A DNA stretch of 62,812 nucleotides, counting the filler, from Vannella sp. (Eukaryota), in the NCBI GenBank assembly GCA_023345925.1. It is 7 parts of 7 records of this genome, joined end to end, with 100 filler letters (N's around TTAATTAATTAA, not from the genome) between each part and the next. Parts side by side here need not be neighbours in the genome. Positions count along the whole stretch, not along the records: positions 58,751 to 62,812 come from JAJQQN010000332.1; 6 more parts are not named here. The stretch is one strand, 5' to 3'. The position numbers and the translations under genes are program-made. Of this stretch, positions 9,503 through 61,434 are shown piece by piece. Under the pieces are notes generated by a model. That model was not told where the DNA came from, made no database searches, and worked only from the letters and a program-made list of their open reading frames with translations. How positions within the stretch are numbered: position 1 is the first letter of the stretch; every line of letters starts with the position of its first letter.

Positions 9503-10157
9503 CGCGGTTGAGCAAAAGATCGCTTTCGAGTGGCAGAAAATTCTTTACAAAGTGGAGCCAGGGTTTCCTCTACGAATTGATTTTATAGGTTCTGGTCATT
9601 AATGTTGTTGTTGGGATCGCGGAGTTGACTTCCACTTCTTTGGGAGCTTCCATTTGCTTCTGGGGACACTCGTCCTCCACTTCAACTAGGCGCTAAGTTG
9701 AATGAAGAGGGTGGGTTTAGGCAAACGAAGGGAGGACAGAGTGGCGGAAGGAGAGATCTCCGCCAGCCAGTTCCCAAAGTAAATCCGTCAAGAGCGTTCT
9801 CTCTGGTGGACTCTGTCTCCTGCAACTGACTCAGAACTCTGTCTTCTCCTGCATCTGACTCAAAGCGTTTGATCGAAGCCGCTCTTGTCCACGGGTTTTC
9901 GTTTGACAAACTGAAAATAGCCCTGCATTGAACCGAATCTTGATCCCTTGAATTTATTGTCACAACAATGATCAACCTGATCACCCAGCCTCTAGTTTTC
10001 CGCAATAACTCACAATTTCTTGATTTGGAAACCAAAGTGGTCCGATTTGGATTTTGAGGAAATAATTGGGACAAAATGAGGAGCAATGTTGTAGGGGTCG
10101 TAGGAGGATAAATGAAGAACGATTCACGAGGTTTGGCATTAGTTTGTTCATACACTG

Positions 10158-10679
10158 ATGTTCACAACACACGCTCTCACCCCCTCTCAAGCCACGGCCG
10201 TGAAGATGTTCGAAGCGCACTTGAACCTCGAACAAGACCAGGCTTGGGTCATGCACTCATCAGAGATCCCACTTCGGTCAGGCCATTCATCATTCATCAG
10301 TGCTCCAACGTCAGTGCAAGATATCCGACCAACAGGAAACTGGAAATCTCCTCAGCTGCTGTCGGTGGTCCATCTTACGTCAGTAGACGGTTACCTTCTC
10401 TTGAGCGTCTCAGAAGTGTGTCACAGCCACGCGCTTGTGGACTATCACCTTAAAACCTGGCTCCTTCAAGCTTCTGATTGCCTTCTGAACGCGAATTACT
10501 CTTTTCTTTGGTGCGAAAGAGGAACCGATGTGATGGCCCCACGCAGGCCTCTCTTGTCTTCTTCCAGTTGGCCCTCTCTCCCAAGCCAGAAGGAAGGATC
10601 CTTATTCAACTGGGAAGGCGTTCCCCAACTCGACCAAACCTCAGCGATAGTGGACCATTCAAGCTTCAGCATGTTTTAG
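10158..10679 (+). CDS. Orphan family protein, copy 1 (173 aa, intronless)
   Basis: Paralogous to 10939-11442 and 15216-15779, with conserved MF.T..LT.SQA.AV..FE..LNL, SVDG, WCERG and EGS.F.WE. Confidence 0.8.
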   Translation: MFTTHALTPSQATAVKMFEAHLNLEQDQAWVMHSSEIPLRSGHSSFISAPTSVQDIRPTGNWKSPQLLSVVHLTSVDGYLLLSVSEVCHSHALVDYHLKTWLLQASDCLLNANYSFLWCERGTDVMAPRRPLLSSSSWPSLPSQKEGSLFNWEGVPQLDQTSAIVDHSSFSMF

Positions 10680-10938
10680 GTATCAAGTAATTCATATATA
10701 AATATTCTATATCAAACCAGAATGATGTTTTAGCTTCATCAGCAATTCGATTTGTTTTACCTTTTTTAGTAAAGAGCCCAAAAGGGGAACTTATCGGGAC
10801 GCTCTCCCCGAATCGGAACATTTATTTCATCTTCAAGTAATTACCAGTGATTATCTCAAGAGTTGCGACAGGAGTGACTTGGCTGGCTCAACAGGTTCAT
10901 ATCCAACTGATCAGGGCTTTCAAATCCAACCATTTCTT

Positions 10939-11442
10939 ATGTTCAGCACACACACACTCACCTCTTCTCAAGCATTCGCAGTGTCCAAGTTCGAGAACGA
11001 CCTCAACCTCGGGCCTTCGCAGGCTTGGGCAACAGAAACCTCGCAATTTGTGCTTCGATCGAACAACTCGTCATTCATCAGTAAACTGGCCGTCATGCAG
11101 GATCTGAAGACAACTGGCAACTGTTGGAGTTCTCCTCAGCTCCTCTCAGTGGCTCATCTTGTCTCCGTTGACGGCTATCTCCACATAAGCGTATCAGAAG
11201 TCCGTCACACTCATACGTTCGAAGACAGACACCTCAAGACATGGCTTCTTCAAGCCTCTGATCGCCTTCTGAATGCAACCTACTCTTACCTATGGTGTGA
11301 ACGAGGAGTCGATATCCAGGGACCTGCCACACGCCGGGTTTTCGTTTCAACGTGGGAAGGATCTCTTTTCGATTGGGAAGGCGTCCCTCAGTACGCTCAA
11401 ACCACCACTATGGTGGATCACACCAACTTCAATATCTTCTAA
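10939..11442 (+). CDS. Orphan family protein, copy 2 (167 aa, intronless)
   Basis: About 64% identical to copy 1 over the first ~126 aa (hand count). Confidence 0.8.
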   Translation: MFSTHTLTSSQAFAVSKFENDLNLGPSQAWATETSQFVLRSNNSSFISKLAVMQDLKTTGNCWSSPQLLSVAHLVSVDGYLHISVSEVRHTHTFEDRHLKTWLLQASDRLLNATYSYLWCERGVDIQGPATRRVFVSTWEGSLFDWEGVPQYAQTTTMVDHTNFNIF

Positions 11443-15087: not shown

Positions 15088-15215
15088 GGTGGCGAAACTC
15101 CCAATTGGGACATTTTGAGCAAAGTTTGAACCACTTTCGGGTCTGATTGCCGATTGGGGATGGTTGGAATCACTTCTACGAAGGAGTAGGCTGTTGGCTC
15201 TCTTCTGGCTCTCAT

Positions 15216-15779
15216 ATGTTCCCGACAAAAGGTCTCACTCCGTCTCAAGCTTCTGCAGTTCGAAAGTTTGAAACTCAGCTGAACCTTTGCTCTGCTCAAC
15301 CGTGGGTAGCGGAACCCTCTCACATTTCGTTCTGTTCAGGGGCCTCTTCTTTCGTACGGCTTATTCAAGTCAATGATCTCCAACCTGGTTGCTGGTGGAG
15401 TTCTCTTCACGTTGCTTCAACACTGAACCTCACCTCCGTAGACGGTCTCTTCGACATCACCTTATCTGAACTGACAAGCATTCACTCATTCGAAGCAGAG
15501 TTGCCGTTAAGAATGTGGATCGTGCAAGCTGCCGACTTGCTCCTCTCAGCGCGCTACTCCTTTGTTTGGTGCGAGAGGGGCCTTGATGGACCGTCAGGGA
15601 CCGTCTCCTCTGAGCATCTCCGGCTGTCTAATGTCCCCTTTGAGCGTCTCCAGTTCTCTAATGTCTCAAGTTGTCCTAACCCACTGCAGAGAAGCTCCCC
15701 AGAAGGATCAATATTCAACTGGGAGGAAACGAGTTCGGCGCATACCCCAGCGGTCTCTTCCCTCTTTAATTCGTTCTAA
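15216..15779 (+). CDS. Orphan family protein, copy 3 (187 aa, more diverged)
   Basis: Same motifs as copies 1 and 2 (LTPSQASAVRKFETQLNL, TSVDG, WCERG, EGSIFNWE). Confidence 0.78.
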   Translation: MFPTKGLTPSQASAVRKFETQLNLCSAQPWVAEPSHISFCSGASSFVRLIQVNDLQPGCWWSSLHVASTLNLTSVDGLFDITLSELTSIHSFEAELPLRMWIVQAADLLLSARYSFVWCERGLDGPSGTVSSEHLRLSNVPFERLQFSNVSSCPNPLQRSSPEGSIFNWEETSSAHTPAVSSLFNSF

Positions 15780-38892: not shown

Positions 38893-40980
38893 TTAATCGA
38901 GCTCGTATGTGTCAGCTCCAGGGTGTGGAGTTGGGGATGGAACAGGATCGTCTGGAATCTCTTTGCCGTTCTCGTCAACGCGAACATAATACTCTTCCAC
39001 CGTGAACAAGGGACCAGATATGCCGCTATCCTTGAGAATGGTTGCTCCATCAGCCTTGAGGAGATTGCGGAATCCTTCGATGTCCTTCTGCTGATCATCT
39101 GAAATATCGAGAGAGTTTCCAAGGTCCATTTGCTCCAAATTCGGGTCAGTTTGGTCTTTCATGTTCTTCATAAAGCGATTTACAGTTGCACGAACCACCT
39201 TACTCTTCATCTTTCCAGTCAGCCCCTTCTCCTTGAACTCTGGCTCTCCAGCAGCATCCGGATCCACACCCATTACCACCCTCAAGAGAGGTAAGAGATG
39301 TGGTTTCTCATTGCGGACCTTATCAACTACCAAGAAAAGTAGGCGAGGGTTGCTCCGCAGCTCCTTGATGAGGAATAGTTCTGGATCCTTCTGGAACTCC
39401 TCCTTGAGGACCATCATAGGATTCTCCTCCAGTTGTCGGACTAGTTTCAGGAGCTTTGCTGGGGTGTTAGCTTTCTTAAAGAGAGAGAAGGGATTCTGCA
39501 TGGTGCTGAGGAGCTGCTCGGGATGATCTTCTATCACCTGAATAAGAACCTCTTTCCCCATCTCAACAACTTCTTGAAGGATTTCAGGATTCTTCTCGAC
39601 ATCCTTGATCAAGAGTTCTTGCATATCTCGTGGTAAGTACTTAAGGAAGACAGCAGGATCTTCCTTCATCTGTCGCAGTAACTCTGGATTCTGACTGATA
39701 GCATCGATCATACTTTCACCCTCTTTCCCTTCATATTCAGGGAGCTGATACATATCCAGGAGGCTCATATTAGCCGTCTCATCGATAGTGATCATTTCCT
39801 TCTTCCCTTCTTCGACATTGATTTGGCTCTTCTTCTTCTTACTGAAGGAAGACCTTCGCTTCAGAAGACTTCGAGAAGAAGAGGACTTGGCTTTCTTCGT
39901 GTCTAACATTTCATAAAGATGCTCGTGGGACTTGAGTTCAGCCACAACGCATGGCCGTTCGTCCATGTCGTTCTTTAGGAGAACCATGTTCGGATCGATG
40001 GCGAGAAGGAGCTGACATGTTTCAGCACTCCCTATGTGAGCAGCAAAGTGGAGGCAACTCCAGCGGCGGGCAGTGATTGATAGAGGATCTGCGTTGCGTT
40101 CCAGGAGGAGTTGGATCATCTTAGACTCATTTTCTACGATAGCCAGGTGGAGCGGCGTGTATCCCTTCAGTGTGGTGGCGTTAACGTGAAGCAAAGATTC
40201 TCCGCGGCTCTTCTTCTCAGCCTTTTCAGCCTTTTTGCGATCCCTCGCCTTCTTTTTTGAGCTGGTCGTTGATTCCTCTTCTCCTTCGCCTTCTGCCTCT
40301 TCAACAATGGCTTCGTTGTTAGCGACAGTCTGCGCAGGTGCGGGAAGCAGAGAGGCGATGTGATCGAGGAGAATCTCTGTGCATTTCAGTTGCTGATGCA
40401 TTACTGCCATGTGGAGAGCAGTGTATCCGTCTTTGGTGGTTTGGATAGTCAAGTCTGGGTTATAGGAAAGGAGAAGAGGGACGATCTCGGCCTGCCCTTG
40501 TGCTACACAGAGCATGAGAGGGGTTATGCCGTTCTCCATCTGCACGTTGATGTCTACGCTCCTTTCGAGTAGACCAGTGACGATCTTCTTATGCCCGAGA
40601 GAGGAGGCTACGTGTAAGATCGTACGTCCATCTTGAGAGCGACAGTCAATCGAAGAGGGATTCTGGTCAAGGAGCTCTTCCACGACCTCCCAGTTGCCAG
40701 TGGAGCTGTGGTAATGAAGCTGAGATCCTGCTTCTTGGTATTGAACCTTGTTCCCTGCTTCTTTCGTCTGTGGAAGGGAGAGGTCCCCCTTCTGCTTCTC
40801 CACAGCCTGTTCTTTCATCTTCTTCGCAGCCTTCTTGGCTTTCGACTTCTTCTTGCTCATCAGTGCTTCTGGAAACTCTTCCTCCTGTGGTGTTGCTAAT
40901 TGGGGCGTCGCTGGACCGGCAGCGCGCGCTGCCAATAAGTTCGCCAGGTTCTTGCGGATGTCCTCCCCACCGTCCGCCAT
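38893..40980 (-). CDS. Ankyrin-repeat protein with helical NP/DP-rich C-terminal region
   Basis: GRTILHVAS, GITPLMLC, GYTALHMA, GYTPLHLA, WSCLHFAA. Confidence 0.9.
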   Translation of the reverse strand: MADGGEDIRKNLANLLAARAAGPATPQLATPQEEEFPEALMSKKKSKAKKAAKKMKEQAVEKQKGDLSLPQTKEAGNKVQYQEAGSQLHYHSSTGNWEVVEELLDQNPSSIDCRSQDGRTILHVASSLGHKKIVTGLLERSVDINVQMENGITPLMLCVAQGQAEIVPLLLSYNPDLTIQTTKDGYTALHMAVMHQQLKCTEILLDHIASLLPAPAQTVANNEAIVEEAEGEGEEESTTSSKKKARDRKKAEKAEKKSRGESLLHVNATTLKGYTPLHLAIVENESKMIQLLLERNADPLSITARRWSCLHFAAHIGSAETCQLLLAIDPNMVLLKNDMDERPCVVAELKSHEHLYEMLDTKKAKSSSSRSLLKRRSSFSKKKKSQINVEEGKKEMITIDETANMSLLDMYQLPEYEGKEGESMIDAISQNPELLRQMKEDPAVFLKYLPRDMQELLIKDVEKNPEILQEVVEMGKEVLIQVIEDHPEQLLSTMQNPFSLFKKANTPAKLLKLVRQLEENPMMVLKEEFQKDPELFLIKELRSNPRLLFLVVDKVRNEKPHLLPLLRVVMGVDPDAAGEPEFKEKGLTGKMKSKVVRATVNRFMKNMKDQTDPNLEQMDLGNSLDISDDQQKDIEGFRNLLKADGATILKDSGISGPLFTVEEYYVRVDENGKEIPDDPVPSPTPHPGADTYELD

Positions 40981-41911
40981 CCCCAAGCAAGTTATGATCT
41001 GAAAATATATAAATATTCTGATGTAGGCAAAGGCATTTGATTTGCAGCTATATTTTGGGCTTGGCCATGAGAAGGGCATTTCCCCTTGGTGGGTCCTGCA
41101 GCTTTGGTCAGATGGTCGAGTGGGCTTCGGAGCACGTATTTGATCATTGGTGGCAAACGATGGACTTTAGTAGTATTGCTGACTCGGTCTGGTGGCTGGT
41201 ATGTGTTGCGGCCTAATGTTGTCCACTGCGAAAGGGTCGAACAACAGAACTTCCGAGGAGTTGAACCGCCCTAATGGAAACCGTTCCCACCACAAACACG
41301 ATTAGCAGCGGAATCTCAAGAAGGGAGAAGTCACCCCCCAAGCCGTGCGCCATGAACAAAATGCTCATGAGCAGACTCACCATTGGTTGGACTGGGGGGG
41401 AGACTTTTTCTGCCAATCATAGGCGGCCAAGTCAGGAGGAATTGGAGACAGCGGGCATGTATTCTATTGCATTTTTGCTAACACCCTCACCCCTTGGAGC
41501 ACGTGGTGCGTGTGTAGTAATTTAATCTCTAGCTTCAAGATCTTGACTGATGTGTGTTCAGGCGCGTGAGACCTGGAAAGTACTCCAGAAAGCTGATGAT
41601 GACAGTCCTGCAAGTCCATGATGCTGGCTCAGCATACTCATCATGTGAACCTTTTGTGCGCCAGGAGCAAGCTTCCGATTTTTGTTGACTTGTCTGTGTA
41701 AGAACCACGAGAACCCCCCTGAAGTACTGGTTCTCTCACAATCAAAAAGTCAATGAAATCAGTCCAAAAGCTTATCCTGAAGAAATGGAGGTCATCAGGA
41801 CACTCCATTCTTCATTTAGAAGTGCGACCACTGTAAACCATTGAAAAAAAGTAGGTATTTTGGATAAATTCTCTAAGCCTTAATACTAGCTTTTACCACC
41901 CCTGATACCAG

Positions 41912-58007: not shown

Positions 58008-58096
58008 CACCCGCTCCCCAAATAATAATCCTAAACGTATGGAATGAAGAGAAACATAAATCCAGCACAATGACCATCATTCCCAAGAGAACCATT

Positions 58097-58137
58097 TCAT
58101 TTCACCTCATTTCACCTCATTTCACCTCATTTCACTT
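58097..58137. repeat. Tandem 10-mer (TCATTTCACC) x4
   Basis: Seen directly, upstream of the MFS gene. Confidence 0.9.
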
Positions 58138-58750: not shown

Positions 58751-59893
58751 CTGCAGCTTGCGTTGACCAGCAGCTCTCTGATCATAAGTTGGCCCTTGCT
58801 CACGCCCCTAGGGTGTCTGGCATCCTTCAGTATTCTTTGATTAGAAAGGTGAAGAGAGGAGGGCTTACTCTCTAAAGTTCGTTGATTAGAATGATCAATA
58901 TTCCCCTCATCTGAAGCCGTTTTCTTCTTACTCTCTGAAGAGAAAAGTGAGGACAAAAACAACAACAGCTCGAGACATCTTACGGTCTTCATGTGTTCGC
59001 CTGATGAGTGGGGTGTTCGTGAAGCGACCTAATGAGATAACTTACAATCTGAACAGTGCGATGCTTCTCAGTCATGGGAACTTACAATCTTCATCATAAT
59101 CAGCCCAGTATTATTGGGGAATAAGCTTACTTCCTATGCGGTTGGATGTTGTTAAGAACCAGTTGTGGACACATTCTTGGCTTTGTTCCTTCTTGATGAA
59201 CAGGTTCTCACTCTCGTTCAATCAAGAAGGCCATCGCGAAAGAAGAAACTGGACCCACTTACGTTCTAAAGTAGTTTTGGGGGTGAGAGTTTGTCAATAC
59301 ATTCCACTTCACCCGTTCATGGGCGGTCACTCACTCTCTGCAAAAGCAATTGTGATGCGCCAGATGGCAACATCGCCTTCAAGTGCATTCTTACTGGATT
59401 GGAGGATTCTCATGAGAATACTGCAAAGAGCCAAACTTATCCTTCTCCCAATGTACTTGACCATTTCACTGTTTCCTCGCTTAGCAGCAAGTCCCAGAAA
59501 GGTCTAAGCACGAAGACACTGTCGTCAGCTCTCTAAATTAAAGGTTGGAGAACAACTGACCCTCTGTGGAAGCATAAATGAGTCTCCACGTTCCCTAAAG
59601 GGGATGGCTTACTCCCCACTCCTTTGAGTCCCTTTCGTGAGTGCGACATGGATAAACAGGCTCTCTTCCTGTCCTTTAGAATTGCTCTATAAGAGCGCCT
59701 TACTTGCTACGCAAGAGTTACCTCAACGCGCCATCGCATTGAACCGAGTACTCACTGCCTAGAGAAGTTACTGTGATTGTTCTACGCCCTTCCGTTCGAA
59801 CAACATGTCACATACACTGTTGAGTTGCTCTGGATGCGCTTGTAAGTGTCCTTGCAGAGAAGACCACCTCCCATCCCAAACCCTGTCCGACAT
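58751..59893 (-). other. Candidate micro-exon gene: chain of short introns separated mostly by 3-nt exons, 3'-truncated
   Basis: 16 GT(A/G)AG-type donors in ~1 kb on one strand; 11 have an AG ending exactly 3 nt upstream; most implied introns are 37-69 nt. Confidence 0.8.
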
Positions 59894-59901
59894 CAAAATG
59901 G

Positions 59902-59924
59902 TAAACCCTAAACCCTAAACCCTA
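59902..59924. repeat. Interstitial telomere-like tract (TAAACCC)3 / telo-box
   Basis: TAAACCCTAAACCCTAAACCCTA between two divergent genes. Confidence 0.8.
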
Positions 59925-60033: not shown

Positions 60034-61434
60034 ATGGAGAAGGCCAAAGCGCCTGTGTCGAGGGACGACCTGTTTCGCCAGCTGAGTGAGGGTTGTTTGT
60101 ACGACGGCACCGTGCGATTGCCATCGTCGATAGACATTCAGAGTGTGATAGCGGATCTGGCAGCTGCGGAGCAGTTGACAGACGCTCCCCCCTCCTTTGT
60201 GGAAGCGGAGAAGTTCATGACTCTGGCGGGCATCAACATGAACGACTTCAACGCGCAGTTTGGGAATTCTCCAAGTCCTGTTCCGTATCCTAAGAAGGAG
60301 GCAAGAGCCAGGAAGACTCGCAGCCGACGTTCTAAGAAAGAGACTGCCAGCGCACCAACAGAAGAGGAAGAAGAGCCGTGCTCTTCGTTACGGCGAATGA
60401 GCCTGCAGGAGAATGATGCTGGGTGTGTTCCACTTCAACCAAGCCGTACGTCTCTTGCAGAGAGTCGGAGAAGCTCCGTTGTTGATGAGGAGGCTCCCAC
60501 CATTCGCCTGCCTCGAGCACGAAGCCGAACAACAGTGGCTGAAGGTTCTTCTGCTCCGCAACCCCCTCCCAAACCTACCAGGCTGCCATCATACGCGTTA
60601 CCGCCCAATCCAACGCCCCAGCACCCCTCTCCTTCCTCTCTTCCTGCCTCTTCAATAACGAACCATTCAACGCACCAGGCTTCCTCTGTACCTTCTCCTT
60701 CTGGTCCGAAATGGGCTCCAAAAACGCCGCAACCACTCCAGACGAGTCATCAGCCCTCCTTTGCTCGTTCTCCTTCTGTTCCCCAATCAGTCCAAATGAT
60801 GTATCACCCGTCCCAACCGATGAGTCACCAGCCGATGCCACAACAGACTTATCAGCCTCCTCAACCCATCCCTCAGCCTCATCCGCGCCCAATCTCTCCA
60901 CAGAACCAGCCAATACCTCAACAGAGCTATCAACCTTCTTATATAGTTTCAGCACCACGCGTGGCATCTGCTGGCCAACTCACTCGAAGTTCCCCCACTC
61001 CCAATGGTCAAACTCATCCTTCCCAAGGCCAGCCCTTCATTAGGCAGCCCTCTTTTCCTCATCAACTCCAAGCTCAACCCCAATCCCAACCAACAAATAG
61101 TGCTGTGGTGAGTCCCACTGCCCTGGGTCCCCTTTCTCCTCGAAATGAATGGGATGTTCCTGTGGATTGGTTCCCAATGCACACTCCCGACGGGCGCCTT
61201 TACTTTATGGACCACTCTGATAGGAAGACGTATTGGGCCCCGCCACCAGGGTTTAGCGCCCGGAAGAACTCTGAAGGAAGGTTATATTATCTTCATCATC
61301 CCACCAGGTCATCGCATTGGAGTTTGCCACCAAAGAACTGGAGCGTTTGCCGCGCGCCAGATGGAAGAATCTATTTTGCGGATAATGTGAATAAGAAGAC
61401 CTCTTGGACCCTTCCCGAACCGGAAGCGCGATAA
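60034..61434 (+). CDS. Pro/Gln-rich protein with three C-terminal WW domains
   Basis: W...TPDGRLYFMDH...TYW.PP, GRLYYLHH...SHW..P, W.....DGRIYF......TSW..P. Confidence 0.88.
   Translation: MEKAKAPVSRDDLFRQLSEGCLYDGTVRLPSSIDIQSVIADLAAAEQLTDAPPSFVEAEKFMTLAGINMNDFNAQFGNSPSPVPYPKKEARARKTRSRRSKKETASAPTEEEEEPCSSLRRMSLQENDAGCVPLQPSRTSLAESRRSSVVDEEAPTIRLPRARSRTTVAEGSSAPQPPPKPTRLPSYALPPNPTPQHPSPSSLPASSITNHSTHQASSVPSPSGPKWAPKTPQPLQTSHQPSFARSPSVPQSVQMMYHPSQPMSHQPMPQQTYQPPQPIPQPHPRPISPQNQPIPQQSYQPSYIVSAPRVASAGQLTRSSPTPNGQTHPSQGQPFIRQPSFPHQLQAQPQSQPTNSAVVSPTALGPLSPRNEWDVPVDWFPMHTPDGRLYFMDHSDRKTYWAPPPGFSARKNSEGRLYYLHHPTRSSHWSLPPKNWSVCRAPDGRIYFADNVNKKTSWTLPEPEAR

Follow-up and report, generated by a model that had tools for sequence, protein, structure and literature searches.

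Probable one-codon exons at the predicted binding loop of an ankyrin-repeat gene from Vannella sp.

A minus-strand gene that very probably encodes an ankyrin-repeat protein occupies one end of the last contig of the window (58751 onward, beside an N-linker), the window being the whole stretch of 62,812 nucleotides, filler included, that was analysed from a Vannella sp. assembly (GCA_023345925.1). Eleven probable exons of 3 nt are found on this contig, all on the minus strand and in two clusters of three and eight. We consider it probable that these one-codon exons diversify the ankyrin binding loop. Among the roles proposed for the array in an initial sequence-only reading, protein diversification is the best one, and a splicing timer, a splicing sensor, and a recursive-splicing substrate found no support.

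The window consists of contigs joined by N-linkers, and a single source organism is assumed from GC content and intron style. Its gene content is that of a compact eukaryote whose introns are short. For a V-ATPase B fragment from a different contig, the top-ranked named protist matches are the amoebozoans Vexillifera, Cochliopodium, and Gocevia (84-86%), and the V-ATPase B tree gave no support for any named group, with the window sequence standing apart from the single fungal row. A full-length V-ATPase B that is 98% identical (P0006) occurs on a 1.7-kb contig, which suggests transcript assemblies of a close relative, in which the gene might appear in spliced form. Three ORFs, judged similar by eye, lie on the plus strand at 10143-10679, 10726-11442, and 15147-15779, two of them in tandem, and adjoin an ABC transporter gene; we know of no family for them. 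On the contig neighbouring that of the array, a 10-base unit forms a short tandem run at about 58095-58135 on the minus strand, upstream of an MFS sugar transporter gene.

Splice signals and gene model

The splice signals of the array are far from random. Eleven of the 16 strong minus-strand donors in 58751-59893 have an AG exactly 3 bases upstream, as first counted by the sequence-only reading, versus 23 of 257 donors elsewhere in the window (11/119 on the minus strand and 12/138 on the plus strand; binomial p 8e-9). AG-NNN-GT[AGC]AG sites number 11 in the array region, a count reached in none of 2000 dinucleotide shuffles (mean 0.44, maximum 4). All of the motifs listed by the earlier reading were found where it had placed them, and its description of the introns also stood: the 15 implied introns measure 37-129 nt, 13 of them 37-69 nt, and they are mutually unlike, with a best local score of 23 that equals the 95th percentile of shuffles and a mean pairwise identity of 0.49. 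Several conserved genes of the window, read by eye, have introns that measure about 45-56 nt and use the same types of donor.

Exon 1 (59816..59893, 78 nt, phase 0) begins at the ATG at 59893, which had rightly been named as a candidate start, and is probably a divergent N-terminal capping ankyrin repeat. What had been taken for a 1-nt T exon at 59816 is its final base. It is followed by a 3-nt exon GCA (Ala, 59756..59758, between TAG and GTGAGT) at ankyrin position 33 and a 3-nt exon CAA (Gln, 59704..59706, TAG/GTAAGG) at position 1, both placed by register, then by a 9-nt exon for Glu-Trp-Gly (59613..59621, AAG/GTAAGC) that covers positions 2-4 with the conserved beta-turn Gly, and by a 3-nt exon AGG (Arg, 59561..59563, CAG/GTCAGT) at position 5. 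The earlier exon list had the 3-nt sites right and overlooked the 9-nt exon. A long coding stretch comes next (59395..59503), and since 59503-59395 is ordinary coding sequence, the 3-nt exons form two clusters rather than the one continuous run that had been proposed.

The four small exons before 59503 supply the beta-turn and restore the ankyrin register without gaps. Inclusion of all four scored best among 40 splice forms in a pairwise test (score 58), aligning 40 residues gap-free with the intronless ankyrin protein of the window at a score that 0 of 5000 shuffles reached, although this comparison protein had been picked after the likeness was seen. The alignment places exon 1 and the small exons on the first repeat of that gene (38893-41166). 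Profiles were less decisive: with a 19-repeat HMM, full inclusion (8.7 bits) came behind seven other forms, the best of which reached 9.9, while an independent 92-window profile placed full inclusion first of 24 forms with a lead of 1 bit, all of its scores being negative owing to the divergence of the cap in exon 1. At the first junction only, an N-x-x-D-x-x-G-x-T loop is recognizable, in which Asn lies at -8 and Gly at -2 relative to Thr and Gln takes the place of Asp. Judged from these sequence criteria, the exons of the first cluster are in all likelihood spliced as drawn here.

Other gene models were tried. A start at the ATG at 59874, which would put every intron in phase 2, was rejected at a score of 15 versus 58, and Gly exons of 56, 19, or 6 nt fell below the 9-nt version in the pairwise test. 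Exon 1 alone had no Pfam match. The intronless ORF that served as register control (minus strand, 757 residues) has 5 Ank stretches and a weak XPC-binding match.

The ankyrin identity of the gene is most evident in the long coding stretch, of which 59503-59450 encodes ankyrin helix 1 and the start of helix 2 and carries the T-x-L-x-x-A-x-x-x-G-x-x-E-x-V helix-turn-helix motif. Its translation found 27 matches at E<=0.001 among 1.84 billion proteins; the matches with a listed stretch fall on residues 1-26, and all 8 that were tested are ankyrin proteins. Pfam gave a weak match to Ank_3 positions 4-21 (E 0.21), with the Thr at position 4, and the Atlas assigned ankyrin at 0.95 but with a low recognition score. 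The exon start at 59503 in phase 0 is indicated by a diverged copy in which the AG is kept, the intron has diverged, and the coding part shows one synonymous change. Downstream, the ankyrin likeness of the window copy ends after 59453, while that of the diverged copy continues, and the 3' part of 59395..59503 has two routes, either read-through or a 36-nt intron (59456-59421) with a 26-nt exon. The contig thus holds one cap and one partial ankyrin repeat, and the gene continues past the contig end. The earlier statement that the product cannot be fixed fails for the 5' half, which is that of an ankyrin-repeat protein in phase 0; the second cluster is open in all three frames.

Upstream of the ATG at 59893, a divergent gene begins after 140 nt (60034-61434, plus strand, ATG at 60034), with three C-terminal WW domains (PF00397). 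Within this gap, common to the two genes, three TAGGGTT units lie in tandem on the minus strand (59903..59924) just upstream of the ankyrin ATG; we take them to be telo-box-like. One DNA run (X2, below) has a 2-base insertion at 59894, directly before the ATG.

The second cluster and other copies

The second cluster contains eight 3-nt exons with their flanking signals: AGA (59335..59337, CAG/GTGAGT), AAC (59263..59265, TAG/GTAAGT), GAA (59131..59133, TAG/GTAAGC), ATT (59086..59088, AAG/GTAAGT), ATT (59046..59048, CAG/GTAAGT), ACC (58984..58986, AAG/GTAAGA), AGA (58932..58934, CAG/GTAAGA), and AGA (58869..58871, TAG/GTAAGC). A standard repeat would require 3-4 if the 26-nt exon is used. In the 129-nt gap between AAC and GAA, a GTGAGA donor at 59211 has an AG at offset 1 only, which would mark a possible 1-nt exon or a decayed 3-nt exon at 59212 (59212..59212). 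The cluster closes with an exon bearing a terminal Gly codon (58804..58816), 13 nt from its CAG acceptor with alternatives of 21 and 4 nt; the 4-nt GGGC exon proposed earlier is more likely the tail of this longer exon. The last intron (58751..58803, GTGAGC...CAG) is cut by the contig edge, and the sequence confirms that its CAG stands exactly there. By analogy with the first cluster, the next exon past 58751 is predicted to be a further 3-nt exon, for position 5.

If the strongest splice sites are used, translation arrives at the second cluster in phase 1, and the frame is never regained. In-frame open routes exist (22 of 72), each of which uses a weak donor or acceptor, the 1-nt exon at 59212, or a skip of the 26-nt exon.

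Near-identical DNA, which may include the source of the window, is present in three biofilm runs of one study (X1-X3); a leaf-litter run (X4) covers neighbouring genes only. A contig from X3 shows 0 differences over 58751-59237 and one from X1 shows 0 over 59216-59690, and since these overlapping contigs are identical to the window across 58751-59690, the array is not an assembly artefact of the window alone. The runs hold three versions of 58782-58830 and one diverged copy of 59453-59596, and these copies could be paralogs, later repeats, or alleles. In X2 and X3, the acceptor of exon 59263..59265 reads AAG for TAG, leaving the AG unchanged, and another copy has a 7-nt deletion near exon 58932..58934 with the acceptor intact. 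None of the few listed variants in X1-X3 falls on a 3-nt exon or on the GT or AG beside it.

The diverged copy, from X1 and X3, departs from the window sequence by 16 substitutions and 2 indels over the intron stretch 59506-59545, keeps the AG at 59505-04, and differs by its one synonymous change in the 51 coding bases 59503-59453. Two 30-letter loose ends, read by hand, extend it past 59453 into an in-frame canonical ankyrin end and upstream into Trp-Gly codons followed by a GTAAGT donor. Around the Arg exon, 59546-59596 has no listed difference while the adjoining 40 bases are about 40% different, which may represent a conversion tract, though differences at the alignment end may have gone unlisted. 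In two other copies the last Gly exon, read by hand from insertions at 58808 and 58810 and a loose end at 58812, measures 15 nt in one and 12 nt in the other, the latter provided that the end of the alignment conceals no difference. Both lengths are multiples of three and both exons end in Gly. Because the window exon has 13 nt against 15 and apparently 12, phase 0 is favoured for the family and the window allele is possibly frameshifted.

This observation bears on the strongest alternative to a working second cluster, namely that the window copy was recently broken, with an intact 5' cluster, a frameshift or recombination after 59453, and a second cluster without a working protein. We give this somewhat less than an even chance. 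The second cluster of the window copy may be frameshifted: either coding stretch, 109 nt or 47+26 nt, leaves phase 1, the last exon has the deviant length, and the donor at 59211 lacks a 3-nt acceptor. Against decay stand the strong donors and the AG retained in all eight exons of the cluster, the few variants of X1-X3 that spare GT, AG, and 3-nt exons alike, and the 22 open routes, one of which runs to exactly 32 residues up to Gly. A broken window copy would be compatible with loop diversification as the best explanation of the family.

Loci with the same layout

A search pattern of donor, intron, 3 nt, intron, and ankyrin exon retrieved 22 stretches from 21 loci, and the same design is genuine in five of these (L001, L003, L012, L007, and L016), which were compared with the window gene by layout and ankyrin fold only. 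Four loci were dropped as intronless ankyrin genes with chance pattern matches (L004, L005, L010, L013), and the remainder because their translation, the only basis of this judgement, was not ankyrin-like (L002, L006, L008, L009, L011, L014, L015, L017-L021). L001, L003, and L012 have a GC content of 17-24% and represent approximately one lineage, since L001 and L012 come from one data set and the intron style is common to all three. L007 and L016, at 45-53% GC, appear fungus-like from the form of their introns and their type of ankyrin. A pattern anchored on the Met-Val of the window gene retrieved 0 stretches from metagenome contigs, a looser one 0 from viral contigs, and protein searches for spliced relatives with exon 1 of the window gene and of L003 gave no match, these last being weak negatives.

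L012 shows the design most fully. Its long exons measure 87 nt, the two tested match Pfam Ank positions 4-32 of 33, and six of seven junctions contain exactly four 3-nt exons (the other has five), in the only frame that is open, so that one 87-nt exon and four 3-nt exons make a 33-residue repeat. A single internal junction was parsed in each of L001 and L003, again with four 3-nt exons, and their cap junctions apparently have one. No stop codon occurs among the 44 parsed 3-nt exons of L012, L001, L003, and L016, of which the 38 AT-rich ones would be expected to include 4.6 (P 0.007), and GC content is 0.29 in the parsed 3-nt exons versus 0.08 in the introns. Across six L012 junctions, nucleotide identity is 0.36-0.56 for the 3-nt exons, 0.78-0.85 for the introns (values inflated by 92% AT), and 0.82 for the long exons. 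Aromatic residues account for 9 of 38 small exons versus 11 of 174 long-exon residues in the L012 comparison, and L012 introns that are 97-100% alike are found at different positions.

L016 has one 37-residue repeat with six 3-nt exons separated by introns that are mostly 0.68-0.91 alike, and its lengthened loop offers an analogy for the second cluster of the window gene. Two smaller features of these loci were seen. At 827-853 in L012, a 27-nt intron with a GTAAC donor is needed for the 33-residue register. In L007 (1-215), whose contig begins within the array, three 3-nt exons (Arg, Arg, Thr) directly precede an ankyrin exon, two of them within an intron-exon unit, about 67 bases long, that is duplicated.

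These loci also bear on whether the micro-exons have a diversifying role at all. Introns might have accumulated in a tolerant loop of an ankyrin protein that is otherwise ordinary, with all exons always included, and several observations would fit: the window introns are old and unrelated, the residues of the first cluster are exactly those that a standard repeat needs, the count per repeat in L012 is fixed, and in every ankyrin the loop is where residues vary most. We regard this as unlikely, since the low identity of the L012 3-nt exons beside that of their introns would be unexpected under relaxed constraint alone (with the same caveat of AT content), AT-rich loci, mid-GC loci, and the window locus all have the same loop split, and the length of the last exon differs among three copies. 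Slightly less likely again is that the second cluster encodes a variable peptide distinct from ankyrin, read in phase 1 or 2 and inserted after one and a half repeats. The sequence past 59453 is indeed not ankyrin-like and all three frames are open, but the second cluster ends in a Gly-codon exon as the first does, is in phase 0 in two other copies, and resembles the lengthened ankyrin loops of L016, which are built alike. Lastly, a non-coding host transcript (for snoRNAs or mirtrons), a splicing timer, chance, or an assembly artefact is most improbable, for although tiny exons between short introns look like host genes and three Rfam matches were obtained (E 0.57-2.6), none of the three inside the array introns is near threshold (15-20 bits against gathering thresholds of 36-50), two are on the other strand, the diverged copy shows coding conservation, and the independent X1 and X3 contigs match the array.

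Known systems and a possible mechanism

The nearest precedent is found in fungi. The passages cited describe NACHT-ankyrin genes of Tuber melanosporum in which 3-bp exons number in the tens and undergo alternative splicing (PMC4986451, PMC13449251, PMC10197012, PMC9815663), a system counted among lineage-specific strategies (PMC13449251). As described there, it shares with the window gene an ankyrin region that contains series of 3-bp exons (11 here) and a proposed diversification of a recognition domain, so that the one-codon-exon design is not unprecedented. The window gene differs in belonging to a protist, in having an ankyrin cap at its start, and in its short, unrelated introns, its splicing being read from DNA. 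No NACHT domain lies upstream of its ankyrin repeats, the ATG at 59893 opening directly into the cap, which places the gene outside the Tuber nank NLR family. Relative to Tuber, then, the protist host, the lack of NACHT, and the mapping onto the binding loop are new, the passages cited giving no place of the Tuber exons within the repeat. The literature searched, comprising main texts of papers open without subscription, yielded no 3-nt exon array from a protist.

In the mechanism that we propose for loop diversification, each codon of the inter-repeat loops likely has an exon to itself, such that single residues of the predicted binding surface could be changed, lost, or exchanged while the helices are left untouched. 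Codons would come to differ between copies through mutation and through exchange via the flanking introns, and surplus exons would permit alternative inclusion of the kind reported for Tuber. L012 favours codon change at the DNA level over skipping, with its fixed count of four exons per repeat, fast codons, and shuffled introns. Alternative inclusion would be open to L016 and the window gene through their surplus exons; the window copy itself gives no sign of recent shuffling mediated by introns, since its introns are mutually unrelated. The product may be a variable cytoplasmic sensor of non-self or pathogens, and this immune or sensor role is suggested only by analogy with the fungal precedent. 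The array is also a test of how faithfully the spliceosome joins 3-nt exons between introns of 35-60 nt and of whether diversity arises in RNA or in DNA. Ordinary gene callers cannot see such genes, so they are likely misannotated in many protist and fungal genomes.

Schistosoma micro-exon genes encode secreted proteins from short symmetric exons of several codons, with no repeat fold. They resemble the window gene in having runs of short symmetric exons thought to vary the protein, and they differ from it in that its exons are of one codon and its fold is ankyrin. They had been named at first as a known case, and the codon-sized exons of Tuber, as far as the passages on them go, are closer. 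In brown algae, LRR-ROCO and NB-ARC-TPR genes are described, in the passage cited, as shuffling their exons both through splicing and through exchange among paralogs (Zambounis et al. 2012; PMC13449251). There, as in the window gene, exon structure is tied to the repeat units of candidate immune receptors, but each exon holds one whole repeat rather than one residue.

Designed ankyrin libraries provide a comparison for the positions involved. According to the passages cited, their consensus is DxxGxTPLHxAAxNG..., with positions 2, 3, 5, 10, 13, and 33 randomised, and on the beta-turn and helix 1 the randomised positions make up one uninterrupted surface for binding (PMC4308713). The small exons cover positions 2-5 in L012 and 33, 1, 2-4, and 5 in the window gene. 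Positions 2, 3, 5, and 33 of the DARPin and ANK-N5C designs are thus sites on small exons (PMC4308713, PMC8229355), and three of the four small-exon positions of L012 are among those randomised (PMC4308713).

A tentative extension, which we hold to be possible but not probable, is that a natural DARPin library was built independently in several unrelated lineages, comprising the window protist, the AT-rich protist, and fungi. In each, the beta-turn would have been cut into one-codon exons, and binding residues could be singly mutated, recombined, or skipped. If so, single cells would own a combinatorial repertoire of intracellular receptors. In the literature searched, so far as its passages go, codon-sized exon arrays trace to one truffle study of 2012 and are cited as lineage-specific; stand-alone protist ankyrin genes with arrays on the engineered loop suggest recurrent diversification of binders by single residues. 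The designed libraries differ in being synthetic, in keeping Gly4 fixed, and in also randomising positions 10 and 13, as the cited passages give them. These two positions lie here in the long exon, and they are variable in L012.
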